Source: Actinomycetota bacterium (lineage in GTDB: Bacteria; Actinomycetota; AC-67). From it: a stretch of DNA of 64,000 nt. Positions within the stretch are counted from its first letter, which is position 1. Each line of letters starts with the position of its first letter. The stretch lies in assembly GCA_046565595.1 (NCBI GenBank), contig JBKHYG010000121.1, forward strand, positions 330 through 64,329, written 5' to 3'. The translations under genes and the position numbers were made by a program. The notes beneath the pieces were generated by a model. That model saw only the letters and a list, made by a program, of their open reading frames with translations, did no database searches and was not told the origin of the DNA. This document shows positions 20,354 through 51,532 of this stretch, in pieces.

Positions 20354-20404
20354 CCGGGTCTACAGGGTACGCGCCTTCGGAGGGCGGCGCATCAGGCCTC
20401 GCTC

Positions 20405-22288: not shown

Positions 22289-22389
22289 GGCTTCACTTCT
22301 TCACGAAGGCCCGACCGCCATGTCGACGCGCCGTCGCCAAGCGAGATAGTCTCGCGCTCGAACCGCACCGATCCGGGGAGTTACTGACG

Positions 22390-23147: not shown

Positions 23148-23177
23148 GGCTGCTGATAGAGGCAGGGGAACCGAACC

Positions 23178-23966: not shown

Positions 23967-23996
23967 GCCGATGTTGATGTATACGGGAGACTCGCT

Positions 23997-24839: not shown

Positions 24840-24849
24840 GAGTGGATGG

Positions 24850-25578: not shown

Positions 25579-25588
25579 GGTAGACCTG

Positions 25589-27315: not shown

Positions 27316-28794
27316 TCACGGGCGTATGCCGGCCTGGTCGAGCCAGGCGCGTGCGGCTGCCGCGAGGCTCGATGCGCTCGCGACCTCTGCTACGCCAACC
27401 ACGGGGAAGCCCTCGGACCTCGCCGCCTCGGCGGTTGGGGGCCCCAGGCAAACCGCTGGCAGGTGCGCTGGTTCCGAGCCGTGCGACCTCATCAGTTCCG
27501 CCGTCGAGCGTGCTGTCTCTGCGCTTGCCAGCAGAACGGCTCGGACCTGGCCGCGCTCGATCATCTGCAAGAGCTGGTCAGAGAGGGCTTCAACTCGCGC
27601 GGTTGTGTACGCATGGCGGTGTTCGACCGTCCAGCCTTTGGCTTCCAGCGCGATCGCTAAGCCCGGGTCCGTCATGTTCCCTCCGACGATGGCGACGGTT
27701 CCCTTTCCTCGAGGGAAGCCCGCGGCGAGATCCGCTACGGAGTAGGCCTCGGGCACGAGATCGGGTCTCCCGATGAGCGGACGCAGAGGTTCGCCGGTCG
27801 CAGGTCCGATGCAGGCGAATCCGATCCCCGCGAGTTCCCTACCTCCCCTGCCTTGCGAACGCATGGCAGAGGCGAAAGCCTCGGAGCCGTTGCGGCTGGT
27901 GAACACGAACCAGGCGATCCCCTCGGCCCGAGCTATGGATCCGTCGTTGGTGGGTGCGATCTTTATCGTCGGCTCGATGTGCGCTGCGATGTGACGATCG
28001 GCCAACTCCTTGACGAGCCTCGAGACCTGGCGGATCGGTCGCGTCACCCAGACGATCGGGCGTGGATCCCTTGGTTCCGCGAACCGGACGGTTGCGCCGA
28101 CGACGATCGTTACCGGAGCTTCCAGGTGGCTCGTTGCTCCTGGAAGTTCTGCGAGCGTCGTCACTACCGTCTGCTCGAGAGGAGTCGTTGCCGCCTGGAT
28201 GGCTGCCGCCGGTTCGTCCGGCTCTCGTCCTGCGTCGATCAACCCCCGGCTGACATCACGGACCGATGCAAGTCCCATGAGCACGACGACGGTGTCGGCT
28301 GCAGACGCCGCGGACCAGTCGCGCCGCGGGCCGTCGGCTTCGGTGGCGGTCAGCACGCAGAAGGACGACGCGGCACCCCGGTGGGTCACCGGTATCCCTG
28401 CCGAAGCGGGAGCCGCCAGGGCGGAACTGATACCGGGAACCACGACGCACTCCGTTCCCTCTTGGATGAGCCGCGAAACCTCTTCGCCGCCGCGCCCGAA
28501 GACGAAAGGGTCGCCTCCCTTCAGTCGCACGACGCGGCGTCCCCTCCGCGCCTGATCGACCAGCGCCTGGGTGATGTCATCCTGCTGGGGTCCAGAGCCA
28601 GGAGCCTTGCCGACCTCGACCACCTCAGACGTCGGTGCGATCAGGGCTCTGATCTCAGCTCCCACGAGCCGATCGATGTAGACGATCTCGGCTCTGCGGA
28701 TCTCCTCCAATGCTCGCAGCGTCAACAGATCGGCGGCTCCGGGGCCGGCGCCGACGATGGCGACGCGACCGCGCGCACCGCCGCCTGAGGTCAT
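27316..28794 (-). CDS. bifunctional uroporphyrinogen-III C-methyltransferase / uroporphyrinogen-III synthase (CobA-HemD fusion)
   Basis: N-terminal CobA domain (VAIVGAGPGAADLLTLRA, GGDPFVFGRGGEE) plus a C-terminal HemD-like domain. Start set to the ATG overlapping the hemC stop as ATGA. The track's Arg-rich extension was rejected. Confidence 0.8.
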   Translation of the reverse strand: MTSGGGARGRVAIVGAGPGAADLLTLRALEEIRRAEIVYIDRLVGAEIRALIAPTSEVVEVGKAPGSGPQQDDITQALVDQARRGRRVVRLKGGDPFVFGRGGEEVSRLIQEGTECVVVPGISSALAAPASAGIPVTHRGAASSFCVLTATEADGPRRDWSAASAADTVVVLMGLASVRDVSRGLIDAGREPDEPAAAIQAATTPLEQTVVTTLAELPGATSHLEAPVTIVVGATVRFAEPRDPRPIVWVTRPIRQVSRLVKELADRHIAAHIEPTIKIAPTNDGSIARAEGIAWFVFTSRNGSEAFASAMRSQGRGGRELAGIGFACIGPATGEPLRPLIGRPDLVPEAYSVADLAAGFPRGKGTVAIVGGNMTDPGLAIALEAKGWTVEHRHAYTTARVEALSDQLLQMIERGQVRAVLLASAETARSTAELMRSHGSEPAHLPAVCLGPPTAEAARSEGFPVVGVAEVASASSLAAAARAWLDQAGIRP

Positions 28795-29690
28795 GACCTG
28801 AGCAGAGCGTCCGCGCCGCGCGCACGCAGGCGCTCGGCAAGTTCGATGCCAGCTTTCTCTGCGTCGGTGTGTTCGACCTGATCGGTGAGCACCGTCGTGC
28901 CGTCTTCGGAGGCGACCAATCCTCGTAGACGAACGGTGTCGTCTCGGATCTCGGCGAGCGCGGCGATGGGAAGGTGACAGTCCCCTCCCAGTGCAGCTAC
29001 CAGTGATCGCTCTGCATCCACGGCTCGACGGCTCGCCTCGTCCTCGATCTTGCCCAAGGCCGCCCGCATGTTCCGGTCCGTAGCGCGACATTCGACCGCC
29101 AGCGCTCCTTGGCCTGGCGCGGGCAGCATCGTGGTGATGGGCAGGATCTCTGCTGACGCCATCGAGCGCCGAAGTCTCTTCAGGCCGGCCACCGCCAGGA
29201 CGACCGCATCGACCTCTGCGTCGGTCATCTTCTTGATGCGCGTATCCACATTGCCTCGGATGGGGACCGGACGCAGACCCTTTGGCAATGCTCGCAACTG
29301 TGCGCTGCGACGCAGGCTCGATGTCCCCACCGTGGATCCGGTGGCCAGACCTCCCAGTCCCTTACCTGTCCGGGTGAGGATGCAATCCCTCGGGTCCTCT
29401 CGCTTAGGCACGCCGCCTAGGACGATGCCCCGAGGTGAGTCGACCGGGAGATCCTTCACCGAGTGAACTACCAGGTCCACCTTGTTCGAGGTCAATGCCT
29501 CCTGAAGTTCCGCAACCCAGGCTTCCTTGTTGGCGGCAGGGTCGTCACCTCGATCGCCGGCGGTGGACATCGGCACCAACTCGAAGCTCCGATGGGTGAT
29601 CACCTGTGAGACCTGTTGGCGAACCAACTCGGCCTGGGCGAGCGCCAGGGGAGAGGTCCTGGTGCCTATGCGTAGGACGCTTCGCGGCAT
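28791..29690 (-). CDS. hemC: hydroxymethylbilane synthase (porphobilinogen deaminase)
   Basis: HemC signatures IGTRTSPLALAQ and the C-terminal cofactor Cys region (GGDCHLPIA). Confidence 0.9.
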   Translation of the reverse strand: MPRSVLRIGTRTSPLALAQAELVRQQVSQVITHRSFELVPMSTAGDRGDDPAANKEAWVAELQEALTSNKVDLVVHSVKDLPVDSPRGIVLGGVPKREDPRDCILTRTGKGLGGLATGSTVGTSSLRRSAQLRALPKGLRPVPIRGNVDTRIKKMTDAEVDAVVLAVAGLKRLRRSMASAEILPITTMLPAPGQGALAVECRATDRNMRAALGKIEDEASRRAVDAERSLVAALGGDCHLPIAALAEIRDDTVRLRGLVASEDGTTVLTDQVEHTDAEKAGIELAERLRARGADALLRS

Positions 29691-29742: not shown

Positions 29743-30390
29743 TCAAGCGTGCTCTTCGAGCGCCTGCTTGCGCTGCTCGTGGAAGGACAGGATCTGCAAC
29801 TCCATCGAGAGGTCCACCTTGCGGACCGTGACATCTTCGGGTGTCTGCAGCGTCGTCGGCGCGAAGGACAGGATGCTCTTGACGCCCGCCGAGACGAGCC
29901 GGTCGCACGCATCCTGCGCAGATTCGGCGGGCGTTGCGATGATGCCGATCACGACCTCGCGTTCCTTGACGGTGCGCTCTAGGTCGTCGAGATCGTCCAC
30001 GACGACACTGCCGACACGGGTTCCGATGGTCTCGCTAGAAACATCGAACGCTGCTACCAGGCGGAAGCCTCGTTCATCGAATCCCGGATACGAGGCCAGG
30101 GCTCGGCCCAGGTTGCCCACGCCGACGATCGCGCAGCGCCATTGCTCGGTCAGGCCGAGCACCCGCTCGATGTGGTGGATCAGGTAGGGGATGTCATATC
30201 CGACCCCGCGGGTCCCGTACTGGCCGAGGTAGGAGAGGTCCTTCCGCACCTTGGCCGCGTTGACGCTGGTCGCCTCGGCAAGTTCCTGGCTGGAGGTGGT
30301 GTGCGCGCCGCCCTGGAGCATCTCGGTGAGAGCCTCCAGGTAAGCCGGGAGGCGGGAGACGGTTGCCTCGGGGATGGGACGGTCCCGCAT
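29743..30390 (-). CDS. rex: redox-sensing transcriptional repressor Rex
   Basis: Winged-helix N-terminus plus Rossmann fold (IVGVGNLGRAL); 215 aa. Confidence 0.9.
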   Translation of the reverse strand: MRDRPIPEATVSRLPAYLEALTEMLQGGAHTTSSQELAEATSVNAAKVRKDLSYLGQYGTRGVGYDIPYLIHHIERVLGLTEQWRCAIVGVGNLGRALASYPGFDERGFRLVAAFDVSSETIGTRVGSVVVDDLDDLERTVKEREVVIGIIATPAESAQDACDRLVSAGVKSILSFAPTTLQTPEDVTVRKVDLSMELQILSFHEQRKQALEEHA

Positions 30391-30408
30391 GAGGTTCAGG
30401 ATACGACC

Positions 30409-30426
30409 TCGTGAACGCGTTCACAA
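30409..30426. promoter_or_regulatory. Rex operator (ROP) site 1: TCGTGAACGCGTTCACAA
   Basis: 17 of 18 positions match the actinobacterial Rex consensus TTGTGAA-N4-TTCACAA. It lies 19 bp upstream of the rex start codon. Confidence 0.6.
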
Positions 30427-30535
30427 ACCCTCGACCGGGGGAGAGCTGTCGCCCTCGGCGGGCCGAGATATGGAACCTCGGGCGAAGCGGGACGCAGATG
30501 AGGTGACCAGATCGGTAGAGAGGACTAGGCTGCGC

Positions 30536-30553
30536 TAGTGAAGCCGTTCACAA
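30536..30553. promoter_or_regulatory. Rex operator (ROP) site 2: TAGTGAAGCCGTTCACAA
   Basis: One mismatch to consensus. It lies 29 bp upstream of the geranylgeranyl reductase ATG that heads the nuo gene string. Confidence 0.55.
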
Positions 30554-30581
30554 GCGTTAGCGGTGCGAAAGCGATAGGGGG

Positions 30582-31898
30582 ATGGTGGTCCGAGAGGTCG
30601 ATGTGATCATCGCCGGGGGAGGACCCGGCGGGTCCACCGCTGCCTACCATCTGGCCGTCCGCGGCAAGCGCGTACTGGTGATCGAGAAGAGCGCCTTTCC
30701 TCGCGAGAAGGTCTGCGGTGACGGACTCACTCCCAGGGCGGTCAAGGCGCTCCACCACCTCGGCCTGGACACCACCGGCCCCGAATGGGCTCGTTCCGAG
30801 GGGCTCAGGATCATCGGGGCTGGGCATACCCTCGAGCTCCCCTGGCCAGAGTTGAACGGATGGCCGGGCTATGCCTTGGTGCGCGCGCGCCTCGATCTAG
30901 ATGAGCTATTGCTGCGCCACGCCGAGAAGGCGGGTGCGACGGTCTGGACCGAGACCGAGGTCGTGGATCCCATCCTTGACCCTGACGGCGTCGTGATCGG
31001 GGTGCGGTGCCGCTCGGTGCAGTCGCCAGACGACGATCAGCCCAGCCTGTTCGACGGCCACGCTAAACGGGGTCGGGTCCGCGGCGAGATCCTCGAGGTT
31101 CGAGCTCCGGTCGTGATCGCCGCGGATGGCGTGGCGAACAGGTTCGGACAGGCCCTCGGGATCAGACGGATCGAGAAGCGCCCCATGGGCGTCGCGGTAC
31201 GAACCTACTTCCGCTCTCCTCGGGCCAGCGATAACTACCTCGAGAGCTACCTGGAACTGTGGCGCGGCGACGATCTGCTGCCAGGCTACGGGTGGATCTT
31301 CCCGACCCCAGACGGGACCGTGAACATCGGGCTGGGATTGTTGAACTCCTCCGCGCACTTCCAGCAGGTCGACTATCGAGGGCTGCTGACCGACTGGGTG
31401 GCGAACCTGCCGCCAGATTGGGAACTGGACCGGGACAACCAGGTCGGCCAGATCAGGGGAGCCGGCCTGCCGATGGGCTTCAACCGGACCGCTCTGGCCA
31501 AGCCCGGGCTCATGCTCATCGGAGACGCGGCGGGAGCGGTGAACCCCTTCAACGGCGAGGGGATCGCCTACGCGATGGAGACCGGCGAGTTGGCCGCCGG
31601 TGCCGCTATCGAGGCCTTGGCTTCGGGCTCTCCTCACGCCTTGCGGGTCTACCCCGATCGACTGAAGGAGACCTACGAGGGCTACTTCATCTTGGGGCGT
31701 GCGTTCGTCAGGTTGATCGGCGAGCCGAAGGTCATGCGCTTCCTGACCCAACATGGTTTGAAGCGCCGAGATCTGATGCGCTTCGCCTTCAAGGTCTTGG
31801 CGAACCTGGCGGAACCTCGTCGTGGTGACTCTCACGACCGGTTGTTCAACGCGATGGTCAAGGTCGCGCCCACCATCAACAAGGTGGTGGGGATCTGA
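30582..31898 (+). CDS. FAD-dependent geranylgeranyl reductase family oxidoreductase (MenJ-like)
   Basis: FAD-binding GxGxxG (VIIAGGGPGGSTAAYHLA). Length and motifs fit the geranylgeranyl reductase family. Confidence 0.75.
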   Translation: MVVREVDVIIAGGGPGGSTAAYHLAVRGKRVLVIEKSAFPREKVCGDGLTPRAVKALHHLGLDTTGPEWARSEGLRIIGAGHTLELPWPELNGWPGYALVRARLDLDELLLRHAEKAGATVWTETEVVDPILDPDGVVIGVRCRSVQSPDDDQPSLFDGHAKRGRVRGEILEVRAPVVIAADGVANRFGQALGIRRIEKRPMGVAVRTYFRSPRASDNYLESYLELWRGDDLLPGYGWIFPTPDGTVNIGLGLLNSSAHFQQVDYRGLLTDWVANLPPDWELDRDNQVGQIRGAGLPMGFNRTALAKPGLMLIGDAAGAVNPFNGEGIAYAMETGELAAGAAIEALASGSPHALRVYPDRLKETYEGYFILGRAFVRLIGEPKVMRFLTQHGLKRRDLMRFAFKVLANLAEPRRGDSHDRLFNAMVKVAPTINKVVGI

Positions 31899-31992
31899 TG
31901 CATCTCGAGTGTGCGCTCGTGAAGCCCCGGGGTGTTTGCGAACCCCAGCAAGCGGTCCATAGCCTGCGGTCGTCCCGGGGGAGGACCACTTC

Positions 31993-32442
31993 TTGACGCT
32001 CGTTGATTACCTGCCCATCTTGATCCTGCTCGCGATCGCAACCGCGTTCGCGGGTCTGTCGATCCTGGTCGCCTCCAAGACCGGCCCAAGGGCTCCATCC
32101 CCCGAGAAACTCGCGCCTTACGAGTGTGGCATCGAACCTGAGCGGGAGCTGGTCGAACGGTTCCCCGTGAAGTTCTACGGGATCGCGATGCTGTTCATCA
32201 TCTTCGACATCGAGATCATCTTGTTGCTGCCCTACGCGGTCATGACACGCGAGCTCGGCATCTTCGGGCTGATGGAGATGGGTGTGTTCCTGCTGCTGCT
32301 GCTCGGGGCTTACCTGTACATCCGCCGGGCGGGCGGCTTGGAATGGGAAGAAGAAGAGACCACCCTGCGGCGGCGTGTCTCGGCGCAGCTCATCCAGCGG
32401 TACAGGACACAGTCGGACAGCGGTGAGAGGCTGGGCGCCTGA
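31993..32442 (+). CDS. nuoA: NADH-quinone oxidoreductase subunit A (with a ~30-aa C-terminal extension)
   Basis: TTG start after a GGGGGAGG Shine-Dalgarno. Three transmembrane helices and the PYECG motif. Confidence 0.8.
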
Positions 32443-32921
32443 TGGGCTGGGAGCAGAACCTCCCCAACGGGATCCTCCTTACGAGCGTAGAGAAGTTCGT
32501 CCAGTGGTCTCGCGCGAATTCCCTCTGGCCGGCGACCTTCGGTCTGGCCTGCTGCGCCATCGAGATGATGGCTACCGGCGCAGCGACCCATGATCTCGCT
32601 CGGTTCGGGATGGAGGTCTTCCGGGCATCGCCGCGCCAAGCCGACCTGATGATCGTCGCCGGCCGCGTCAGCCAGAAGATGGCGCCGGTCCTCCGTCAGA
32701 TCTACGACCAGATGCCCGAGCCCAAGTGGGTCATCAGCATGGGCGTGTGTGCCACCAGCGGAGGCATGTTCAACAACTATGCGATAGTCCAAGGCGTCGA
32801 CCAGATCGTCCCCGTGGACATGTATGTGCCCGGGTGTCCCCCACGGCCCGAGATGCTGATGGACGGCATCTTGAAGTTGCACGAGCAGATCAAGGCGACC
32901 CCGCTGAAGGCGGACCGATGA
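32442..32921 (+). CDS. nuoB: NADH-quinone oxidoreductase subunit B
   Basis: Cluster N2 ligands present ([20 protein letters not shown]). Confidence 0.9.
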
Positions 32922-33478
32922 CGAGCGAAGAGTTGCTAGCGCTTTGCGCACGAGCCTCGTCCGAGGTCGGAGGCTCGCTTGAACCTGTGGATGAGCGAGG
33001 CGTGACGAGCCTGGAAGTGGCCGCGGATCGTTTGGTCGAAGTCGTCACCTGGTTCAGGGACAACGGACCCTTCGAACTTCTAGCCGACCTATCGGTGATC
33101 GACTGGCTCGGGATCAATCCTGACGAGAAGCGCTTTTGCGTGGGGTACATGCTCGCATCGCCACAGCATCCCGCACGGTTGCAACTGCGCGTCTACCTCG
33201 GGTCGCAACAGCCTAAGGTCGCTTCCTTGACCGGTCTGTGGCCGGGTGCGGATGCGCTGGAACGCGAGGCGTACGACTTCTTCGGGATCGGGTTCGAGGG
33301 CCATCCGAACCTGCGTCGCATGTTCATGCCCGACGATTGGGAGGGTCACCCTCAGCGCAAGGACTATCCCCTCGGCGGGATCGATGTTCGTTACGAGCAT
33401 GGGCAGGCTGTCACCCCACCCGATGACCGTGCGAAGCGTTCGACGACCACCTCTGGCTATCCGGGCAGGACCGCATGA
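32918..33478 (+). CDS. nuoC: NADH-quinone oxidoreductase subunit C
   Basis: ATGA coupling. NuoC 30-kDa subunit motifs. The upstream extension in the track was rejected. Confidence 0.85.
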
Positions 33479-34743
33479 GCGAGGTCTTCACCACCGGACA
33501 GGATTGGAGCGCCGCGGTCTCCGAGATCAGCGACGAGACGCTGGTCATCAACATGGGGCCGCAGCATCCGTCCACCCACGGGGTGCTCCGGTTGGTTCTC
33601 ACCCTCGACGGTGAGACGGTGATCGACGCCGACAGCGTCATCGGGTACCTACATACCGGCATCGAGAAGAACGCCGAGGTTCGTACCTGGGTCCAGGGCG
33701 TCACCTTCGTGACTCGTATGGATTACCTGTCGCCGTTCTTCAACGAGGTGGGTTACTGCCTTGCCGTCGAACAGCTGCTGGGGATCGAAGCTCCGCCACG
33801 CGCGCAGGCCATCCGCGTCCTGCTGATGGAGTTGAACAGGATCAGCAGCCACCTGGTCTGGCTGGCGACGACAGGCATGGAGCTCGGAGCGTTGTCGATG
33901 ATGCTCTACGGCTTCCGCGAGCGCGAACAACTCCTGGACATCTTCGAGCACATAACCGGCCTACGGATGAACCACGCTTTCATCAGGCCGGGCGGTCTCG
34001 TGACCGATCTTCCTGAAGGGTCGGTCGAGAAGATCGAGGAGTTCCTGGCCTCGTTCCCCGACCGTCTCGCAGAGTACGAAGGGTTGCTGACCCAGAACCC
34101 GACCTGGATCGACCGCAACCGCGGGATCGGGATCCTCGACGCTCCTACCGCTCTCGGACTCGGCGTGACCGGTCCGCTTCTACGCGCAGCAGGCGTCGAC
34201 TGGGATCTCCGCAAGCAACGCCCATACTGCGGTTATGAGAACTACGAGTTCGATGTCCCGACCGACACCGACGCCGACTGCATGGCCCGGTACCGGGTGC
34301 GTCTGGAAGAGATGCGCCAATCGATGAGGATCGTGCGGCAGGTCCTCGATTCCCTGCCCGCCGGACGGATCATGATCGAGGACCCGAAGATCGCTTGGCC
34401 AGCGCAACTGTCGCTGGGCCCGGACGGGCTCGGGAACGCTCAGGAGTACATCCGCCGGATCATGGGCGAATCGATGGAAGCGCTGATCCAGCATTTCAAG
34501 CTGGTTACCGAAGGCTTCAGCATCCCGGTCGGCGAGACGACCGTCGCGGTCGAGTCGCCCCGCGGTGAGACCTCGTTCCGTGTGGCGAGCGGAGGCAAGA
34601 ACAGGCCTTGGCGCGTCCATGTACGCGACGCCTCCTTCGTGAACCTCCAAGCGATGCCGCACATGGTCCGCGGGTTGCTGGTGGCAGATGTGATCTCGGC
34701 CGTCGCGTCGATCGACCCGGTGATGGGAGGTGTGGATCGATGA
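33475..34743 (+). CDS. nuoD: NADH-quinone oxidoreductase subunit D
   Basis: 49-kDa subunit. N-terminus [14 protein letters not shown] and C-terminus DPVMGGVDR. Confidence 0.9.
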
Positions 34744-35369
34744 GCGGTGGTGGCAAGGCGGATACATCGCTGATGGGGGTACCCCTGATCAGACCGGCCG
34801 TTGCGCCTCTCTCGGATCGGTTCCGTTCCGACGCCGACGAGGTGATCGCTAGATACCCCAAGGGCCAGGAACGCAGCGCGCTACTTCCGCTGCTCTACCT
34901 GGTCCAGGGTGAGCACGGCTTCGTCTCGAGCCAAGGCATCAGCGCCATCTCGGAGATGCTTGGCCTGACCCGAGCCGAAGTGGCGGGCGTGGCCAGCTTC
35001 TACACGATGTTCAAACGGTCGCCGCAAGGAAGATGGTTGATCAGCGTGTGTACCCAACCCGCGTGCGCGTTCGCTGGCGGGACCGAACTCATCCGGAGGT
35101 TGGAGGAGACGCTGGGCGTCGAGCGTGGAGGCACGAGCCCTGACGGCACGATCTCCATCGAAGAGGTCGAGTGTCTATGCGCCTGTGACGGCGCACCGGT
35201 GTTCAGCGTCAACTATGAGAACTACGAACGCATGGCCGTCGAGGACGCCGTGTCGATGGTCGAGTCCTTGAGATCTGGCGGCGAGCCTCCTGCGGGTGCG
35301 CGCGGTGAGATCCCGGCGGACTTCAAGACCGTGTCGCGCCGCATGAGCGGAGTGGAGGCGCCGCGATGA
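34740..35369 (+). CDS. nuoE: NADH-quinone oxidoreductase subunit E
   Basis: Thioredoxin-like [2Fe-2S] Cys ligands ([14 protein letters not shown]). ATGA coupled. Confidence 0.85.
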
Positions 35370-36649
35370 GCGCGACGCTTCAAGAGACCAAGATCCTGTC
35401 CGCCAGATGGGACCGGCCCGACGGCAACACGCTGGCCGGATACCTCGCGACCGGAGGGTACGAGGCGCTGCGCACGGCCCTCGAGATGCAGCCCGACCAG
35501 ATCATCGAGACCGTCAAAGAGTCGAACCTGCGGGGCCGCGGAGGCGCAGGATTCCCGGCTGGACTGAAGTGGTCCTTCATCCCCAAGGACCGTAGACCGT
35601 CCTACATAGTCTGTAATTTCGACGAAGGCGAGCCTGGAACTTTCAAGGACCGCGAACTGGTCGAGCGTGACCCGCACCAGATGATCGAAGGCATGGCCAT
35701 CGCATCCCTGGCGATCGGCGCACACGAGATGTACATCTTCTGCCGAGGTGAGTTCGCCTACGCCGCCCGTGTCCTCGAGCGCGCGATCGCCGAGGCGATG
35801 CAGGAGGGATATCTGGGGAAGGGGATCCTGGGAAGCGACTACGACCTGGATTGCATCCTCGTGCGCGGTGCAGGCGCATACATCTGTGGCGAGGAGACCG
35901 CGTTGCTCGAGGCGATAGAAGGCCGTCGAGGTCAACCTCGTCTCCGCCCACCGTTCCCGGCCACCCACGGACTGTTCAACCTGCCGACCGTCGTCAACAA
36001 TGTCGAGACCTTCGCATGCGTCCCCCACATCATCTCTCGGGGAGCGGAGTGGTTCCGTTCGCTGGGTACCGAGAAGGCGTCGGGAACCAAGATCTTCAGC
36101 ATCTCTGGCGATGTGGAGAAGCCGGGTAACTACGAGGTGCCCTTCGGCACATCGGCTCGAGACCTGATCGAGGGCTTCGCCGGCGGCGTTAAGGGCGGGA
36201 AGGGATTGAAGGCCTTCACCCCCGGTGGCGCATCCTCGACACCCTTCTTCGGCCCCGAGGAACTGGATGTCGGCATGGATTGGGAGTCCGTCCAAGAGGC
36301 GGGGTCCCTCCTTGGTACCGGCGCGATCATCGTCTTCTCCGAGGACAGGTGCATGGTACGAGCGGCCCATCGTTACACGCGTTTCTACGCGCACGAGTCA
36401 TGCGGCAAGTGCACGCCATGCCGCGAAGGGACCTACTGGCTCGAGCAGACGCTCCGTCGGTTCGAGGCAGGCGGAGGACGGGAGGATGACCTCCCGATCT
36501 TGCTGGATGTCGCCAACAGCATCCCGGGGCGTTCGTTCTGTGCGCTCGGTGACTTCTCTGCCGCACCGGTCACTTCGACCGTGAGGCGCTGGGAGGCCGA
36601 TTTCCGCAAACACATTGGCAGCGGGGGAGGCTGCCCGATCGAACCATGA
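35366..36649 (+). CDS. nuoF: NADH-quinone oxidoreductase subunit F
   Basis: FMN/NADH motifs (GRGGAGFP). 4Fe-4S ligands CGKCTPCREG. Confidence 0.9.
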   Translation: MSATLQETKILSARWDRPDGNTLAGYLATGGYEALRTALEMQPDQIIETVKESNLRGRGGAGFPAGLKWSFIPKDRRPSYIVCNFDEGEPGTFKDRELVERDPHQMIEGMAIASLAIGAHEMYIFCRGEFAYAARVLERAIAEAMQEGYLGKGILGSDYDLDCILVRGAGAYICGEETALLEAIEGRRGQPRLRPPFPATHGLFNLPTVVNNVETFACVPHIISRGAEWFRSLGTEKASGTKIFSISGDVEKPGNYEVPFGTSARDLIEGFAGGVKGGKGLKAFTPGGASSTPFFGPEELDVGMDWESVQEAGSLLGTGAIIVFSEDRCMVRAAHRYTRFYAHESCGKCTPCREGTYWLEQTLRRFEAGGGREDDLPILLDVANSIPGRSFCALGDFSAAPVTSTVRRWEADFRKHIGSGGGCPIEP

Positions 36650-38979
36650 GCAACGGCACGGTGACGCTCACCATCGACGATCGCGAGATCACGGTTCCTG
36701 CCGGAACCCTGGTGATCCGCGCCGCCGAGCAACTCGGGATCTACATCCCGCGCTTCTGCGACCATCCGCTACTGGATCCAGCGGGAGCGTGTCGCCAGTG
36801 CATCGTGGATGTCGAAGGGCAGCGCAAACCCCTGACCAGTTGCACCACCGTGTGCACCGAAGGCATGGTCGTGCGCACCCAGCTCTCTAGCGACGCGGCG
36901 GCCGAGGCGCAGCGCAGCGTCCTCGAACTGTTGCTCATCAACCACCCCTTGGACTGCCCGATGTGCGACAAGGGCGGTGAGTGCCCGCTGCAGGATCAGG
37001 CCCTCGAGTATGGCCCCGGCGGCTCGCGCTACATCGACACCAAACGGCGTTTCACCAAGCCCGTAGCCATAAGCCCGCTGATCAAGTTGGATCGAGAGCG
37101 GTGCGTCCTGTGCGCGCGCTGCACACGCTTCAGCGATCAGATCGCCGACGATCCGTTCATCGAGTTGTTCGAACGAGGCGCCCTGGAGCAGGTAGCGATC
37201 TACGAGGATGAGCCCTATCGCAGCGAATACTCGGGCAATGTGGTCCAGATCTGTCCGGTCGGAGCGCTGACCTCGAGCGAGTTCCGCTTCCAGGCTCGAC
37301 CCTTCGACATGACCACGACGGTCTCGACCTGCAACCGTTGTGCGTCTGGCTGTCAGACCCTCGTGCAAGAGCGCCGCGGCCAACTCGTACGGGTACTCAG
37401 CTCGACCGATCCGACCGGGCAGGATGAGTGGATCTGCGACAAGGGCAGGTTCGGGTATCTGTACGCACAGACCCCCGAACGCGTGACCGAACCGCTGGTC
37501 CGCAAAGGTGACGGCTTCGTGGCCGTCTCGTGGGCCGAGGCCATCTCCACGGTGGCAGCGGCGATCCGCGAGACCCGCGATTCGAGGCTCGGAAGTGCCG
37601 TTCTGGGAGGATCGATCTCGACCGATGAGGACGCGTATGCGCTCTCCAGGTTCGCTCGCGTCGTGCTGGCGACCAACGACATAGATCACCGTCTGGGCGG
37701 GTCGACCCCTGAGGACTACGCGGCGCTGGGACAGATCGCCAGCGGCGTCGAGACCGCGGGCTTCGCCGACATCGATGCAGCCGACACCATCGTCATCGCT
37801 GGAGCGGACCTCCGAGAGGTGTCGCCCATCGTTGCTCTACGGATCCGCAAGCGTCTCCACGCGGGCGGCGTCAGGGTCATCGAGGTAGCGCCGCGAGCAT
37901 CTCGGCTGATCGAGAACGGCGCTAGCTGGGTTCCCGTCAAGACGGGAGCAGAGGCCGCAGCACTCCGGAGCCTCGAGTCCGACGGTCGCACCATCCTGCT
38001 GGTCGGTGACGCTCTGATCGGAGACGGCTCCTTCGCGCACGCCTGGAACCTGGCCCTGGATCGGGGTTGGAAGTTCGGGTGGGTGCCGCGTAGAGCGAAT
38101 GCCCGAGGCGCTGTGGCCGCGGGCTGCTTGCCGACCGCTCTGCCGGGAGGTCGCTCGATCACCGAACCCGAGGATCGAGCAGCCGTGCAGAAGGTCTGGA
38201 ACAGCGTTCCGCCCGATCAGCCTGGCAGGGAAGGCGCCGCGATCCTGCGCGAAGCCGCCGAGCTCGGTTTCCTCCTGATCGTCGGCGCAGACCCGGTTGC
38301 TGACGCGGCGGGATCGCTGAAGGCAGCCTCGGGGATCGACGCTGCCGGCTTCGTGGTGTCGATCGACATGTTCCTGACCGAGACCGCGAGGCGCGCAGAT
38401 GTTGTGCTGCCTGCGGCGGCCGTCTACGAGCGGGCGGGTTCGATCACCTCGTGGGAGGGACGGCGCTCGCGGGTGAGAGCCGCGATCGACCCTCCTGGCC
38501 TTGCCCAAGAGGACCGCGAGATACTCGCTCAGATCGCAACCGAGCTCGGACACAGCGGGTTCCCTCGAACGGCACAAGCCGTGCAGGACGAGATGGCGCG
38601 GCTATCGCCCGACGGTGGCGCACCACGACCCGTTCCGACCGAAGCACTCGATCAGACGCCAGCAGAGATGGTGTTGTGCACCTACCCGCTGCTGATCGAT
38701 TCGGGCGCGATGATGCACGGATCCGACGCGCTGGCTGCAACGGCTCATCCGGCCGCCATCGAGATCTCACCCGATGACGCAGCGCGCCTGAACCTGACCG
38801 ACGGGCAACTGGTTCGCGTAACGAGCTCTCACGGGTCGCTGAAGGGTCCGATCAGGGTCGAGGGTCGTGTCGCTAACGGAGTCGTCTTCATCCCGGCGCA
38901 ACATTCCTCCCTCGAGGGCGTGGATCTCCAGGCCGCGAGTGGCGTGACGACCGTCCGGATCGAGAAGGAGGGGCCATGA
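36646..38979 (+). CDS. nuoG: NADH-quinone oxidoreductase subunit G
   Basis: 777 aa. N-terminal 2Fe-2S and 4Fe-4S Cys clusters, followed by a molybdopterin-like domain. Confidence 0.9.
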   Translation: MSNGTVTLTIDDREITVPAGTLVIRAAEQLGIYIPRFCDHPLLDPAGACRQCIVDVEGQRKPLTSCTTVCTEGMVVRTQLSSDAAAEAQRSVLELLLINHPLDCPMCDKGGECPLQDQALEYGPGGSRYIDTKRRFTKPVAISPLIKLDRERCVLCARCTRFSDQIADDPFIELFERGALEQVAIYEDEPYRSEYSGNVVQICPVGALTSSEFRFQARPFDMTTTVSTCNRCASGCQTLVQERRGQLVRVLSSTDPTGQDEWICDKGRFGYLYAQTPERVTEPLVRKGDGFVAVSWAEAISTVAAAIRETRDSRLGSAVLGGSISTDEDAYALSRFARVVLATNDIDHRLGGSTPEDYAALGQIASGVETAGFADIDAADTIVIAGADLREVSPIVALRIRKRLHAGGVRVIEVAPRASRLIENGASWVPVKTGAEAAALRSLESDGRTILLVGDALIGDGSFAHAWNLALDRGWKFGWVPRRANARGAVAAGCLPTALPGGRSITEPEDRAAVQKVWNSVPPDQPGREGAAILREAAELGFLLIVGADPVADAAGSLKAASGIDAAGFVVSIDMFLTETARRADVVLPAAAVYERAGSITSWEGRRSRVRAAIDPPGLAQEDREILAQIATELGHSGFPRTAQAVQDEMARLSPDGGAPRPVPTEALDQTPAEMVLCTYPLLIDSGAMMHGSDALAATAHPAAIEISPDDAARLNLTDGQLVRVTSSHGSLKGPIRVEGRVANGVVFIPAQHSSLEGVDLQAASGVTTVRIEKEGP

Positions 38980-40142
38980 ACGAGGGCCTGCTCATCTCGA
39001 CCATCAAAGCCGTGATCGTCTTCGGAGCCCTGATGGGATCCGTACCTCTGGCCGTATGGGCTGAGCGCCGGGTCGTCGCCTTCATGCAGCAGCGGCTCGG
39101 ACCTAACCGCGTAGGGCCTTTCGGCATCCTTCAAGGCCTCGCCGATGGCGTGAAGCTCTTCTTCAAGGAGGACATCCGGCCGACCAATGTGGACAGAGGC
39201 ACCTACATCGCGGCGCCCATGATGTCGGTGATCCCGGCCTTCCTGTCAGCAGCGGTGATCCCCTTCGGTCCAGACATCACGATCGGCGGCCGTGTCGTCT
39301 CGATGCAACTGGCCGAACTGAATGTGGGCGTGTTGTTCTTCCTGGCGATGGGAAGCATGATGGTCTACGGCGTAACGCTGGCCGGTTGGTCGTCTGGCTC
39401 GGTCTATCCGCTGCTCGGTGGCGTCCGCAGCGCCGCACAGATGATCTCCTACGAGATGGCGCTTGGCCTCTCGGTGGTCGCTGTGGTGATGCAGTCGGGA
39501 ACCTTGTCGACCTCGGGGATCGTGGACGCCCAAGCGGGCTCCTTCCTGGGAGTCCTTCCTGCGTGGAACATCTTCACCCAGCTGCCGGCTTTCCTGATCT
39601 TCTGCGTGGCGGGTCTGGCTGAGACGAACCGAGCTCCCTTCGATCTGGCAGAAGCCGAGAGTGAGCTCGTCGGCGGCTTCCATACCGAGTACTCGAGCAT
39701 CAAGTTCGCGATGTTCATGCTGGCCGAGTACCTACATGTCATCACCACGAGCGCGATCGCGGTGACCTTGTTCCTCGGCGGCTGGCGCGGACCCACGCTG
39801 CCCTTCCTGACACCGCTGTGGCCGCTCGTCTGGTTCGGGCTGAAGCTCGGCTTCATGGTGTTCCTGTTCATGTGGGTGCGCGCAAGCCTTCCACGGGTCC
39901 GCTACGACATCCTCATGCGGTACGGATGGAAGACCCTGCTGCCCGCATCGCTGGGCTGGGTTGCCATCACCGCGGTCCTGCTGGTCCTGAGTTCGGAACT
40001 CGATCGGCCAACGCTCGCCTCCGTCCTCGGCTTGATCGCGGCACTGGTGATCCTGGGGCGTGCCGCGCTTGTGACCTGGCGTCGGTTCGGCACGCTAGGA
40101 CCCCTAGCCCTGATGAGGAAGGTGCGTCATGGCGTTCAGTGA
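38976..40142 (+). CDS. nuoH: NADH-quinone oxidoreductase subunit H
   Basis: NuoH/ND1 signature ([23 protein letters not shown]). Confidence 0.9.
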
Positions 40143-40695
40143 CATCGCAAGAGGGATGTCGATCGTCGCACGGCACCTCTTCAAGAAGCCGGTGACCAAG
40201 AGCTATCCCGAAGACCCCAAGGACCCGTCCCCGCGTTACCACGGTCGTCATGTCCTGAACAGGTATGAGGATGGCCTCGAGCGCTGCATCGGGTGCGAAC
40301 TGTGCGCTTGGGCATGTCCGGCCGACGCCATATTCGTGGAGAGCGCCGAGAACTCTCCGGAGGAGCGGTACTCGCCAGGCGAACGGTACGCGATCGACTA
40401 CCAGATCTCTTACGCGCGGTGCATCTTCTGTGGCCTGTGCATCGAAGCCTGCCCGACGCGCGCACTCACCATGTCGACCGAGTACGAACTGGCCGGACCG
40501 AGCCGCGAGGCTCTCGTCTACACAAAGGGCATGTTGCTGGCCGCACCCAACGAGGGAGCGGCGCCGACACCTCACACCGACGCCGAGGTCCAGGCGAGAG
40601 GCATCGACTACTACGGCGGACCGCAGGCGACCGACCCCCTGGCGTCTTCTGAGCGCGCAGAGCATCTACCTCCGCCGGAACCGGGGGCGCCCTGA
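40129..40695 (+). CDS. nuoI: NADH-quinone oxidoreductase subunit I
   Basis: Two CxxCxxCxxxCP motifs. Confidence 0.9.
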
Positions 40696-41231
40696 TGGAA
40701 CAGTGGGTCTTCTGGCCGATGGCCGTGTTCGCTCTGGCGAGCGCGATGATCGTCATCGTCACTCCCAACGCGGTGCATGCTGCCCTGGCCCTGGTTGCGA
40801 ACCTGTTCTCGATCGCGGTGCTGTACCTGCTGTTGGACGCACACTTCCTGGCTGCGGCTCAGGTGGTGGTCTACGCGGGAGCGATCGTCGTCCTCTTCCT
40901 CTTCGTGATCATGTTGCTCGGCGTGGATCGGCGAGAGGACCTTGCCGAGAAGGTCCCGGGTCAGCGCGCGATCGGCTTGGCATCCGTGCTGGGGATCGGC
41001 GCGATAACCGTCCTGGTCGTCCGTGCGGTCTACGCGACCACGACCTTCGGTGACCTATCTGCTGCGAACGAGAGTGGGAACATCGAGGCGCTCGGTCGGC
41101 TGCTCTTCAGCAGTTACCTCTGGCCCTTCGAGGTCGTATCGGTCCTGTTGGTAGTCGCAGCGATCGCTGCCATGGTCCTTGGGCGCAAGCGTCCAACCAG
41201 GGAACTCACTCATCAGGATCGTGACGCATGA
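40695..41231 (+). CDS. nuoJ: NADH-quinone oxidoreductase subunit J
   Basis: Five transmembrane helices, ND6-like. TGATG coupled. Confidence 0.8.
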
Positions 41232-41530
41232 TCCAGCCCGCACAGTTCTTGGCATTGGCCGCCATGCTCTTCGCGGTCGGTTCGGCTGGCGTGATCCTGC
41301 GTCGGAACCCGCTGGTGATGTTCATGGGGATCGAGCTGATGCTGAACGCGGTCAACCTGACCCTGGTCACCTTCGCCAAGGTGCATGGGACGCTCGACGG
41401 TCAGGTGCTCGCCTTCTTCGTCATCGTCGTCGCTGCTGCCGAGGTGGTTGTCGGACTCGCGATCATCGTGCAGATGTTCCGACGGGTCCGAGGCGCCGAT
41501 GTGGATGATCGGAGTTCGCTCAGATGGTGA
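41228..41530 (+). CDS. nuoK: NADH-quinone oxidoreductase subunit K
   Basis: 100 aa, three transmembrane helices, ND4L-like. Confidence 0.85.
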
Positions 41531-43437
41531 TAGCCCACCAGAGCACACCCGCGATCATCGAGAACGCGTGGATCGTCGTCGCCTTCCCCCTCCTAGGTGC
41601 AGCCTTGTTGTTCGCCTTCGGGCGGAGGATCGGCCGCGGTTCCGGACCTATCGCGACGATCATGATGATCGGATCGGCGGTGGGCTCGCTGATGATCTTC
41701 GGCGAGTTGCTGAAGCGACCGAGCGAACAGAGATCCTTCGTCGAGCCTCTATGGCAGTGGTTCAGCGCGGGCGATGCGAGCGTCAGCATCTCGACCCGTA
41801 TCGATCCTCTGACGGTCATGATGCTGCTGGTAGTGACCTGCGTGGGGGCGCTGATCCACCTCTACTCGGTCGGCTACATGAGGGGCGACGCGCGCGAACC
41901 GCGCTTCTTCGCCTACCTCAATCTCTTCGCGGCCTCGATGCTTGTACTGGTGCTGGCTGACAACTTCCTGGTGCTGTTCCTCGGCTGGGAGCTGGTCGGC
42001 ATGTGCTCGTACCTGTTGATCGGATTCTGGTTCGAGGATCGAGGCAACGCCGCTGCGGCCAAGAAGGCGTTCATCACGAACCGTGTGGGAGACGCGGCCT
42101 TCCTGATCGCGCTCTTCCTGATGCTGTCGACCTTCGGTTCCTTCTCGTTCGAGGTGATCGGGCAGGCTTCCGGCGCGGTCCTGTCCGCGGGCACCGCGCT
42201 GGCGATCGCGCTGCTGCTGTTCGTGGGGGCAGCCGCCAAGAGCGCCCAGATCCCGCTGTATGTGTGGCTGCCGGACGCCATGGCCGGGCCCACGCCGGTG
42301 TCGGCTCTCATCCATGCCGCCACCATGGTCACTGCCGGCATCTATCTGGTGGTGCGTGCGGCCCCCATCTTCGAGGTATCTCCGCTGGCCTCCGATGTGG
42401 TCGCATGGGTCGGTGTCGCGACGATGCTCCTGGCTGGGTTGATGGCGATCGTCCAGGACGACATCAAGAAGATCCTCGCCTACTCGACCGTCAGCCAGCT
42501 CGGCTACATGTTCATCGGGGTCGGAGTTGGAGCCAGCGCCGCTGGTCTCTTCCATCTCGTCACACACGCCTTCTTCAAGGCGTTGCTGTTCCTGGGCGCG
42601 GGGAGCGTCATGCATGCCCTCTCCGGGCGCACCGACATCACCACGATGGGTGGCTTGTTCCGCAAGATCCCGTGGACCTCGGTCACCTTCATCGCTGGTT
42701 GGCTAGCGATCATCGGCTTCCCCTTGACTGCGGGCTTCTTCTCCAAGGACCAGATCCTCGAGGGCGCCTATGTCGCCGACCAGCAGGCCATCTGGATCCT
42801 CGGTCTGGTTGGAGCAGTCATCACCGGGTTCTACATGACCCGCCTGGTTGTGCTGACCTTCTTCGGCAAGCCACGAGATCCGGATCTACATCCTCACGAG
42901 TCGCCTCCCTCCATGGTCTTCCCGCTGGTGTTGCTGGCGGTCGCGAGCCTCGTCGGCGGTTGGCTGATCAACGCGCATCCCGAGGATGGTCGTCTCGTCG
43001 GCTGGCTCGCTCCAGTCCTTGGCCAGCACGAGGCCGCCCACGGGGCACTCTCTGCGACGACGCTGTCGATCATCGCCTCTGGCGCCGGCCTCATAGGAGC
43101 CCTGGTAGCCATCGTCGCGTACGGCTTCCGCCGCTTCGACTGGCAGGCCCGCCGCGAGAGGCCGGGGATCCTCTGGCGGGTTGCCCGCGACAGGTTCTAT
43201 GTCGACCACGCGTACGAGTTCATCTTCACCGGCCTCGGGAAGGTTGGCGCTACCGCGCTTGCCTATGTCGTCGATGCGCGATGGATCGACGGAGCGGTCG
43301 GGTCGGTCGGAGCTGTGTCCACCAGGGTCGCGCAGCTCGCTCGGCGCCTACAGAACGGCCTGGTACGGACCTACGCGCTCGGGATCCTGGCGGGGACGGT
43401 CCTGATGCTCGCGTACATGGTGGGGAGGAACTGGTAG
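41524..43437 (+). CDS. nuoL: NADH-quinone oxidoreductase subunit L
   Basis: 637 aa, antiporter-like ND5 family. Confidence 0.9.
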
Positions 43438-44931
43438 ATGGGCTGGCTGTCGGTGACCCTCTGGGCGCCTGTCGTGGGGGCTCTAGTCATCGGGTTCCTT
43501 CCGCGTCGGTACGGTGCCGCTGCCAAGGGGCTCGCCCTGGCCGCTTCCTTGACAGCCTTCATCTCGTCGCTGGTCGTGCTCGGGCTGTTCGAGACCGGAG
43601 TGGCCGGCTATCAACTGGCCGAGAAGGCCGAGTGGATCCGGTCCTTGGGCGCTTCCTATGGACTCGCCGTCGACGGGATCAGTCTCTGGCTGGTCATCCT
43701 CACCGCGTTCCTGACACCGATCTGCATCCTTGCCTCTTGGGACAACATCAACGAGCCCAAGCGCTTCTTCGCGTTGCTGCTCGTCCTCGAGACCGCAGTC
43801 ATCGGCGTGTTCATGGCTACGGACCTGCTGCTGTTCTACCTGTTCTGGGAAGCGATGCTGATCCCGATGTACTTCCTGATCGGGATGTGGGGTCACGAGC
43901 GGCGGATCTACGCGGCGATCAAGTTCTTCCTCTACACGCTGCTGGGAGGTCTGGTCATGCTCGCGGGGGTCGTCGTGTTGGCCTTCAGCGCGAAGGGCCA
44001 GCTTGGTGGCATCACCTTCGATCTCGAGCAACTCCAGACCGCGACGATAGGACTTGGCACGCAGCGGTGGTTGTTCGCTGCCTTCATGCTCGCCTTCGCG
44101 ATCAAGATCCCGATCTTCCCCTTCCATACCTGGCTTCCCGATGCGCACACCGAAGCGCCGACGGCAGGGTCGGTCATGCTGGCCGGAGTGCTGCTGAAGT
44201 TGGGTGCCTACGGGATGCTGCGTTACGGGCTGGGGCTGTTCCCGGAAGTGGCGATCGAGGCGGGTCCGATACTTGCGGTCCTTGCGATCATCGGTATCGT
44301 CTATGGCGCTCTGGTCGCAACGATGCAGACCGACCTGAAGCGTCTGGTCGCATATTCGAGCGTCAGCCACCTGGGTTTCGTGGTCCTGGGGATCGCCGCT
44401 CTGACCACCACCAGTCTGCAAGGCGCGACCCTGCAGATGATCAATCATGGACTGTCGACCGGAGCCTTGTTCCTGGTGGTCGGGATGGTCTACGAGCGAC
44501 GCCACACCAGACAGATCGAGGAACTCGGCGGCCTCGCGTCGGCTGCGCCGTTGATGGGAGGAGCGATGCTGTTGGCGAGCCTCGCCAGCCTTGGCCTGCC
44601 CGGCTTGAACGGCTTCGTGGGCGAGTTCCTGATCCTCGCCGGCAGCTTCGGGGTGAACAAGCTCTACGCGATCGTCGGTGTCAGCGGCGTGATCCTCGCG
44701 GCTCTCTACCTGTTGTGGGCCTACCAGCGGAGCTTCCAAGGACCTATCGAGCGACCGGAGAACCGCATCGTCGACCTCACCGGCCGAGAGCGTCTGGTGT
44801 TGGCACCGGTATTGGCTCTGCTGATCGTCTTCGGCCTCTTCCCGCGTCCGATCCTCGAGCGCAGCGAACCAACCGTGCGTTCGCTGCTCGAGCGGGTTGA
44901 ACAGATCCGCGCTGCGCAGGAGGCCCGCTGA
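43438..44931 (+). CDS. nuoM: NADH-quinone oxidoreductase subunit M
   Basis: 497 aa, ND4 family. Confidence 0.9.
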   Translation: MGWLSVTLWAPVVGALVIGFLPRRYGAAAKGLALAASLTAFISSLVVLGLFETGVAGYQLAEKAEWIRSLGASYGLAVDGISLWLVILTAFLTPICILASWDNINEPKRFFALLLVLETAVIGVFMATDLLLFYLFWEAMLIPMYFLIGMWGHERRIYAAIKFFLYTLLGGLVMLAGVVVLAFSAKGQLGGITFDLEQLQTATIGLGTQRWLFAAFMLAFAIKIPIFPFHTWLPDAHTEAPTAGSVMLAGVLLKLGAYGMLRYGLGLFPEVAIEAGPILAVLAIIGIVYGALVATMQTDLKRLVAYSSVSHLGFVVLGIAALTTTSLQGATLQMINHGLSTGALFLVVGMVYERRHTRQIEELGGLASAAPLMGGAMLLASLASLGLPGLNGFVGEFLILAGSFGVNKLYAIVGVSGVILAALYLLWAYQRSFQGPIERPENRIVDLTGRERLVLAPVLALLIVFGLFPRPILERSEPTVRSLLERVEQIRAAQEAR

Positions 44932-46385
44932 TGCCGGTAGAGCAGGCTCCCGAGATCATCTGGCACGCGCTCTCGCCGATGCTGATCCTGCTGGCTGGCG
45001 GCATGCTGCTGCTCCTCGTTGGAGTGTTCGCTCCCGCCCTTCCCCGTCGCTTCCTGGCGATCGGATCGTTCCTGACCGTCGTGCTGTCGGGCATCTTCCT
45101 CGCCGCTCAGCTCCCTTCCCAACCTCGCATCACCATGAACGACATGGTCATCATCGATGGTGTGGGCCTCTTCGCTTCGATGGTGATCCTCGCAGCTGCG
45201 GCGTTCGTGATCCCGGTGACCCATTCGTATCTCCGCGAACATGGATGGAACCGGGTCGAGTATCAGCCGCTGCTGTTGTTCGCGACCCTCGGGATGGTCA
45301 TGCTCGCCACGGCGAACGATCTCATCATGGTCTTCATCGCCATCGAGGTCTTGTCGCTCGCGCTGTACACGATGGTGGGCATCGCCAAGAGAGAACGCAC
45401 GGCTCAGGAAGCGAGCCTGAAGTACTTCCTCCTCGGTGCCTTCTCCAGCGCGATCCTGCTCTACGGAGTGGCCTTGTTGTTCGGCGGTACCGGATCCACT
45501 CGGATCCCCGCCATCGCCGACACGATCGCTGCGGGCGGAGCTGACGGCAGACTGGTCTTCGCCGGGCTCGCCTTGCTCATCACCGGTTTCGCCTTCAAGA
45601 TCGGCGCGGTGCCGTTCCACGCTTGGACACCAGATGTGTATCAGGGCGCTCCCACCGCTGTGACGGCATTCATGGCTGCGGGGACCAAGGCCGCCGCCTT
45701 CGCAGCGTTGCTCCGCACGCTGCTGGTGTCCTTCGGAGCGATCGCGTGGGATTGGCGTCCGGTGCTCTGGGCCATCGCCATCGCAAGCATGGTCCTCGGA
45801 TCCGTGGTCGCGATCGTCCAGACCGACATCAAACGGATGCTCGGATATTCGAGCGTCGCACATGCGGGTTTCATCCTCATCGGCGTGGTCGCGGCCGATC
45901 GTGACGGGCTCGCCTCCTCTCTGTTCTATCTGGCCGTCTACGCCCTGATGACCATCGGAGCGTTCGTGTCGGTGATGGCCAGTGGTAGGGGAGACGATGA
46001 GCGAAGCGACCTGGCATCCTGGGCTGGGCTCGGGCACGCCGAGCCGCTGTTCGCGGGCGTCATGACCTTCTTCCTGTTGTCGCTCGCAGGGATCCCGCCT
46101 ACGGGAGGTTTCGCCGCCAAGTTCCTGGTGTTCGCCGCCGCCGAAGGCCAGGGTGAAACAGGACTGGTGATCGTGGGTGTCTTGAGCAGCGTCGTAGCGG
46201 CGTTCTTCTATCTCCGCGTGATAGTCCTCATGTGGCTGCAGGACCCGCTGGACATGCAGCGATCCGCGCTCGATCGGGTCAGTGCCTGGACGCTCGGCGC
46301 AGCAGCAGGTCTCGTCGCGATCATCGGCATCTACCCACAGGCGTTGATCGACCTCGCCCGCAACGCCGCGACGCTGGCAGGCTGA
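44931..46385 (+). CDS. nuoN: NADH-quinone oxidoreductase subunit N
   Basis: 484 aa, ND2 family. Confidence 0.9.
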   Translation: MPVEQAPEIIWHALSPMLILLAGGMLLLLVGVFAPALPRRFLAIGSFLTVVLSGIFLAAQLPSQPRITMNDMVIIDGVGLFASMVILAAAAFVIPVTHSYLREHGWNRVEYQPLLLFATLGMVMLATANDLIMVFIAIEVLSLALYTMVGIAKRERTAQEASLKYFLLGAFSSAILLYGVALLFGGTGSTRIPAIADTIAAGGADGRLVFAGLALLITGFAFKIGAVPFHAWTPDVYQGAPTAVTAFMAAGTKAAAFAALLRTLLVSFGAIAWDWRPVLWAIAIASMVLGSVVAIVQTDIKRMLGYSSVAHAGFILIGVVAADRDGLASSLFYLAVYALMTIGAFVSVMASGRGDDERSDLASWAGLGHAEPLFAGVMTFFLLSLAGIPPTGGFAAKFLVFAAAEGQGETGLVIVGVLSSVVAAFFYLRVIVLMWLQDPLDMQRSALDRVSAWTLGAAAGLVAIIGIYPQALIDLARNAATLAG

Positions 46386-48513: not shown

Positions 48514-48580
48514 TGCTGCAGAAGAGCGTCATCGTCGTTGCTATCCTCGCCGCGGAGGCCGCCCAACGCAGGCGGGACCG

Positions 48581-51494: not shown

Positions 51495-51532
51495 TCCTTC
51501 AGCCTACGCAGACCGGAGGCCCGCGAAGCCCG

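Follow-up and report, generated by a model that had tools for sequence, protein, structure and literature searches.

The window, meaning the whole 64-kb stretch of DNA that we analysed, carries two divergent gene strings that share an intergenic region of 191 bp. On the minus strand, rex (29743..30390) encodes a redox-sensing repressor of 215 aa (NCBIfam equivalog NF003992, 330 bits, cut-off 226). It is followed 52 nt downstream by hemC (28791..29690), which encodes hydroxymethylbilane synthase (TIGR00212, 302 bits), and then by a cobA/hemD fusion (27316..29091) that combines uroporphyrinogen-III C-methyltransferase (TIGR01469, residues 108-338) with uroporphyrinogen-III synthase (HemD models, residues 344-580). 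Since the domain match begins only near residue 107, the true start of cobA/hemD probably lies near the hemC stop, at ~28790. On the plus strand, the gene of a geranylgeranyl-reductase-family flavoprotein of 438 aa (30582..31898; TIGR02032, 234 bits, cut-off 158.8) precedes nuoA-N (31993..46385), which encodes a complete 14-subunit NADH:quinone oxidoreductase, including the NADH-oxidising NuoE, F and G. Profile matches bore out both strings described in the initial annotation, rex-hemC-cobA/hemD on the minus strand and the reductase followed by nuoA-N on the plus strand.

The Rex protein is intact. It aligns end to end with the Thermus Rex structures 1XCB and 3IKT (E ~2e-51), and the recognition helix VRKDLSY, the wing GTRGVGY and the Rossmann GxGxxG motif (GVGNLG) are all aligned to these two structures. 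As judged from the sequence, the locus thus encodes a cognate Rex whose DNA-binding and NAD(H)-binding domains are both intact. The likeness to the Rex of Thermus aquaticus and Thermus thermophilus (T-Rex; 1XCB, 3IKT, 2DT5) is one of protein, with the winged-helix recognition segment and the Rossmann fold conserved.

For comparison we used 80 rex loci, fetched by Rex similarity from GTDB one-genome-per-species contigs. All of them come from uncultured Actinomycetota or Acidimicrobiia and share 56-64% protein identity, which indicates that the lineage of the window is poorly sampled; the best Rex match has 63% identity. The spacing between rex and hemC is 1.3-2.4 kb in nearly all 80 relatives (L002-L081), versus 52 nt in the window; the longer gap is consistent with room for hemA, matching the order rex-hemA-hemC-hemD. 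No hemA-like gene was found between rex and hemC in the window or elsewhere among the window ORFs scanned. One relative, the MAG contig L007, contains at 1-621 a further, divergent rex-like reading frame (~30% identity) as well as an additional cobA-like segment. These extra segments lie 3-4 kb upstream of the main rex, there is a run of N just before the box, and the extra copies could reflect either a duplication or a join made during assembly.

Two palindromes in the rex/reductase intergenic region

The 191-bp region holds two 18-bp inverted repeats of the form TTGTGAA-N4-TTCACAA, which we refer to as Rex operator 1 (ROP1) and Rex operator 2 (ROP2). ROP1 lies at 30409..30426 (plus strand TCGTGAACGCGTTCACAA, rex strand TTGTGAACGCGTTCACGA) and spans -19 to -36 counted from the A of the rex ATG. 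ROP2 lies at 30536..30553 (TAGTGAAGCCGTTCACAA) and ends 29 nt before the reductase ATG. Re-reading of the sequence reproduced exactly what the initial annotation had reported: the coordinates and letters of both 18-mers, a single mismatch in each to the consensus TTGTGAANNNNTTCACAA, and distances of 19 nt from ROP1 to the rex ATG (30390, minus strand) and of 29 nt from ROP2 to the reductase ATG (30582). The mismatch falls at box position 2 in ROP1 and in ROP2 alike, and this is the least conserved half-site position among 32 unique boxes of relatives (T in 18, C in 12, A in 2).

When at most two mismatches to TTGTGAANNNNTTCACAA were allowed, the only matches in the 64-kb window were ROP1 and ROP2. 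Both are intergenic and lie beside a start codon; 100 dinucleotide shuffles gave an expectation of 0.01 matches, and no shuffle contained as many as two. Allowing three mismatches added a single match, at 40795, within nuo coding sequence. A weight matrix 24 nt wide, built from 75 boxes of relatives, scored ROP1 at 27.7 bits and ROP2 at 25.0 bits, at least 22 bits above the next-best site in the window (3.0 bits), and scanning the 64 kb with it revealed no further Rex site; across 100 Markov-simulated windows the per-window maximum had a mean of 6.1 ± 3.4 and a top value of 15.0. These figures argue against both palindromes being functionless chance matches, and their conservation at orthologous positions, described below, effectively refutes this explanation, to which we assign a negligible probability.

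Apart from the two boxes, a repeat search of the intergenic region returned just two repeats, both short and weak, and Rfam at gathering thresholds gave no RNA family anywhere in the window. The centres of ROP1 and ROP2 are 127 bp apart (30417-30545), or ~12 helical turns, so that both boxes face roughly the same side of the helix. We know of no precedent for an interaction of two Rex dimers at operators paired in this way.

Conservation of the palindromes and predicted promoters

Neither the exact consensus TTGTGAANNNNTTCACAA nor the core GTGAANNNNTTCAC had a match in the 80 rex loci. The resulting idea that site 1 is not conserved was dropped once a looser GTGA-N6-TCAC search revealed TTGTGA-N6-TCACAA at the same position in the relatives: in an alignment of the 90 nt upstream of rex, this palindrome stands, perfect, 17-23 nt before the rex ATG in 20 of the 22 closest loci, and most of the remaining loci of the set of 80 have a variant box within 200 nt. 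The 16-nt core of ROP1, GTGAACGCGTTCACAA, is identical to the DNase-footprinted cydA1 operator of Streptomyces avermitilis, ATGTGAACGCGTTCACAA (PMC5355995). In the Acidimicrobiia-type loci (L022-L081), a drifted, asymmetric box, TTG(A/T)GAA-N4-GTGCACAA and sometimes GTGAACAA, is found 20-130 nt before rex, a pattern that suggests co-drift of the operator and of Rex specificity in these relatives.

On the other side of the region we examined 80 metagenome loci containing the reductase, counting the 77 that have at least 120 nt of upstream sequence. A box of the form TTGTGAA-N4-TTCACAA with at most two mismatches lies within 300 nt upstream of the reductase in 68 of the 77 and is absent in nine. 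Measured against TTGTGA-N6-TCACAA, 48 of the reductase-side boxes are perfect, 16 have one mismatch and four have two; elsewhere in 374 kb, only six such boxes were found. The reductase-side box of several relatives, TTGTGAAGCCGTTCACAA, is near-identical to ROP2. Conservation before orthologous genes, the check by which the initial annotation was prepared to see its proposal refuted, was therefore found on the rex side and on the reductase side alike.

The core TGTGA-N6-TCACA is also the core motif of CRP/GlxR-type regulators, and the palindromes could in principle be bound by a CRP/FNR-family (Crp/GlxR-type) protein rather than by Rex. The GTGA-N6-TCAC core is common to both motifs and is contained in the Rex box, and in the closest relatives position 7 of the boxes before rex is T or G, not A, as such an assignment would allow. 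The reductase-side boxes point the other way: every one of the 32 unique boxes has A at position 7 and T at position 12, both of which were free in the search pattern, so the Rex-type TTGTGAA-N4-TTCACAA was recovered at positions that had not been constrained, and the outer T1 and A18 are, like A7 and T12, invariant or nearly so. In addition, dozens of genomes have the box at a fixed offset from rex itself, and the genes behind the boxes are those of the experimentally defined Rex regulon (PMC5355995). We consider binding by a CRP/FNR-family regulator very improbable.

A generic sigma-70 and terminator scan of 30200-32200 returned no promoter and no terminator. Conservation of TANNNT hexamers was therefore our sole basis for calling promoters, and the hexamers that we propose agree with the E. 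coli consensus at just 3-4 of 6 positions. Upstream of rex, the alignment consensus of the closest loci reads TCACAAGC..TAGGATG..ATG, that is, the box, then a conserved TAGGAT-type hexamer, then the ATG ~8 nt further on. A TANNNT hexamer follows the box by 5-7 nt in 25 of 31 unique rex-upstream contexts, compared with a background of 0.28 per offset. In the window, the conserved hexamer corresponds to a predicted rex -10 element, TATCCT (30398..30403, minus strand), which is separated from ROP1 by 5 nt and from the ATG by 7 nt, and the left half of ROP1, TTGTGA (30421-30426), is a candidate -35 element at 17-nt spacing. With this geometry ROP1 would cover the -35 element and the spacer of the rex promoter. 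Because the predicted -10 element is only 7 nt from the ATG, the rex mRNA is apparently leaderless, with a predicted start at ~30390.

The predicted reductase promoter (30503..30531, plus strand) consists of a -35 element GTGACC (30503-30508), a 17-nt spacer and a -10 element TAGGCT (30526-30531) that ends 4 nt before ROP2. Within the clade of the window (L083-L088) the corresponding hexamer is TAGGCT, TAGCCT, TACGCT or TAGACT; at most 3 nt separate its end from the box, and in L087 the two overlap by 1 nt, at the first base of the box. Across the wider set, TANNNT (mostly TAAACT or TAGACT) is found at a fixed offset of -19 from the box in 38 of 59 unique contexts, which would place the operator immediately past the start point. 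In the window the predicted start point, at ~30538, would fall inside ROP2, a classical occlusion arrangement.

Taken together, we regard it as very likely that both palindromes are functional operators of the adjacently encoded Rex, with autoregulation of rex and control of the reductase/nuo string as the initial annotation had proposed. By analogy with the Rex proteins of Streptomyces and Thermus, from which we take the direction of regulation, a low NADH/NAD+ ratio would leave a Rex dimer on both ROP1 and ROP2. On ROP1, Rex would cover the -35 element and the spacer, leading to auto-repression of rex-hemC-cobA/hemD; on ROP2, 4 nt downstream of the -10 element, it would cover the start point and block initiation at the reductase promoter. 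A rise in NADH would release Rex from the DNA and derepress both divergent units.

The reductase-nuoA gap and the probable reach to complex I

The reductase gene and nuoA are separated by 94 nt. Pattern and weight-matrix scans found no full Rex box in this gap of the window, no terminator-like site was detected in the scan between the two genes, and shuffled sequences fold as stably as the RNA of the gap (z = 0.07), a value on which we rejected a structured attenuator or terminator. Given the lack of both a terminator-like site and a stable fold, read-through from the reductase to nuoA is likely, and the reductase transcript probably extends across the gap into nuoA-N.

The gap also contains a conserved element (31917..31965, plus strand) made up of a half-site TCGTGAA (31917-31923), a -35-like TTGCGA (31936-31941) and, after an 18-nt spacer, a -10-like TAGCCT (31960-31965); it is followed by the Shine-Dalgarno sequence GGGGGAGGA and by the TTG start codon of nuoA at 31993. 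We read this element as a putative separate nuoA promoter without a full Rex box, with a predicted start at ~31972. A long-spaced palindrome, TCGTGAA-N11-TTTGCGA, was also considered in the gap and rejected, as its right arm is lost in relatives and its spacing is unfit for a Rex dimer.

The conservation of the element raises the possibility that ROP2 controls the reductase only and that nuoA-N, driven from its own promoter in the gap, is not meaningfully Rex-responsive here. The blocks CGTGAA, GTTTGC and TAnCnT, and with them the -35-like and -10-like sequences at their 18-nt spacing, are invariant in the window and its five closest loci at a mean column identity of 58%, and a CCTAGGATGA block at least 80% conserved stands ~30 nt before nuoA in 59 further gaps; both observations, like the missing full box, fit such independent control. 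It would nevertheless have to be reconciled with two genes that no terminator-like site or stable structure separates, and with a synteny that is near-universal in the reductase set, where the order reductase-nuoA-nuoB-nuoD is seen in nearly all loci that are long enough. Moreover, in two loci with a long reductase-nuoA gap, L151 and L152, the box stands immediately in front of nuoA, and its sequence, TTGTGAACTGCCTCACA(A/T), is close to the footprinted nuoA1 operator of S. avermitilis, TTGTGACCTGCTTCACAT (PMC5355995); this placement on the nuoA side, shared with S. avermitilis, suggests that nuo is the selected target. Conversely, the box is missing from L082, a reductase homologue (66% identical) whose downstream flank, fetched over 2.5 kb, gave no nuo match. 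Finally, the Rex-like half-site TCGTGAA, 12 nt upstream of the gap -35, belongs to the sequence that is invariant in the window and the five closest loci. On balance, we consider it rather unlikely, though the strongest of the rival readings, that ROP2 controls the reductase alone.

The half-site itself has a counterpart in S. avermitilis, where an operator beginning TCGTGAA (wblE) is footprinted by Rex and half-sites are protected weakly (PMC5355995). As this protection is weak, a weak second Rex input at the gap half-site is possible by analogy. In L085 and L086, two directly repeated half-sites occupy the same position.

The reading that we favour thus keeps complex I under Rex in a restricted form: it is probably Rex-responsive through read-through only, and read-through across the 94-nt gap would add an NADH-inducible component to the output of the separate nuoA promoter. 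The initial annotation had predicted NADH/NAD+-responsive control of both the heme-branch operon and complex I. The conservation of both boxes and the precedent of S. avermitilis speak for this prediction, which we retain for the heme branch and qualify for complex I, where read-through would be added to the activity of a separate predicted nuoA promoter and ROP2 would not be the sole control.

The reductase and the window among known Rex systems

The reductase has its best match in the metagenome search at 68% identity, and its best solved relative is 3OZ2, a digeranylgeranylglycerophospholipid reductase. MenJ (Rv0561c) is the mycobacterial menaquinone side-chain reductase, and the protein of the window belongs to the same geranylgeranyl-reductase flavoprotein family; at 247 bits versus a cut-off of 700 for the MenJ equivalog NF045655, it is by the NCBI criterion no MenJ equivalog. 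We regard it as a candidate menaquinone side-chain reductase. In L109 (1433-2287) and L114 (1139-1876), a ubiE/menG-type methyltransferase gene lies directly upstream of the reductase orthologue in the same orientation, with a Rex box between the two genes. This neighbour supports a menaquinone-related role of the reductase, as far as gene context can indicate one.

The closest point of comparison is S. avermitilis, in which Rex represses nuoA1-N1 and rex-hemAC1DB through TTGTGAA-N4-TTCACAA operators and is released by NADH; its regulon comprises rex-hemAC1DB, nuoA1-N1, cydA1B1CD, the atpI operon and wblE (PMC5355995). For Streptomyces coelicolor, the Rex targets quoted there from Brekasis and Paget (2003) include rex-hemACD and cydABCD. 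The window shares with the Streptomyces regulon the 18-bp operator, the association of rex with heme-branch genes, autoregulation and complex I as a target (both predicted here), and the box-bearing operons, which serve NADH re-oxidation and respiration, are the same as those that are direct Rex targets in S. avermitilis (PMC5355995). The predicted position of the operator over the -35 element and spacer of rex is likewise similar: Rex footprints in S. avermitilis extend from -39 to -17 at the rex promoter, a region that "encompasses the -35 region", and from -42 to -16 at nuoA1 (PMC5355995), and the rex-side box of the window extends from -36 to -19.

The window differs from Streptomyces in four respects. 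First, it has no hemA between rex and hemC. Second, its complex-I-side operator lies before the reductase gene, the commonest complex-I-side placement across the metagenomic set, and not at the nuoA promoter, as studied in Streptomyces. Third, its two target units are divergent and share one common 191-bp region. This divergent rex/reductase-nuo arrangement was seen in none of the 80 rex loci, none of which has a reductase-nuo string upstream of rex, nor in any of the 41 reductase loci whose upstream sequence extended over the full 2.5 kb; elsewhere it was seen only in an identical Logan contig (L001), and sample SRR23730085 contains the identical locus. Fourth, it has a second nuo cluster, described below, that lacks nuoE, F and G and has no box.

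We conclude that the window contains a known actinobacterial redox circuit in an uncultured lineage and not a new kind of system. The reductase-side operator leaves the understanding of how Rex works unchanged. Its distribution suggests that the reductase is a widely conserved, so far unreported Rex-regulon member in Actinomycetota outside Streptomyces, and in the literature searched we found no mention of Rex together with a geranylgeranyl reductase. If the reductase does saturate the menaquinone side chain, redox poise would also govern the tailoring of the quinone pool. That Rex couples the NADH/NAD+ ratio to menaquinone side-chain tailoring and complex I dosage, using a compact divergent 191-bp region in this lineage, is a proposal that we put forward tentatively.

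The two sites also provide a confident regulatory annotation of which respiratory genes of the window would respond to NADH/NAD+ poise. The heme branch, the reductase and the complex I string that contains NuoE, F and G have a box, whereas the second nuo cluster, without these subunits, and a b6c-like complex do not. The second cluster (60437-64000), nuoA-B-C-D followed by nuoH, runs off the end of the window and is without nuoE, F and G, that is, without the NADH-oxidising module. Both pattern and weight-matrix scans agreed with the initial annotation that no box precedes this cluster (60437 onward) or the b6c-like cluster (22390-27264). Restriction of the box to the nuo string with NuoE, F and G fits an NADH sensor that controls only the NADH-oxidising enzyme.

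The b6c-like cluster is itself unusual. It comprises an unannotated 140-aa ORF, a 2x[4Fe-4S] ferredoxin, a Rieske protein, a c-type cytochrome, an unannotated 267-aa ORF and a split cytochrome b made up of a b6-like part and a petD-like C-terminal part, and it is adjoined by a cytochrome c maturation set on the minus strand (ResB, CcdA-like and thioredoxin-like proteins), the region as a whole spanning 18884-27264. Directly after nuoN, at 47329-57306, lies a glycan-synthesis block with several GT4 glycosyltransferases (one of 1086 aa), an ABC-2 exporter pair, a UDP-GlcNAc 2-epimerase and a UDP-sugar dehydrogenase. Behind this block, a 1017-aa protein combines a SpoIID domain with a carbohydrate-binding module.
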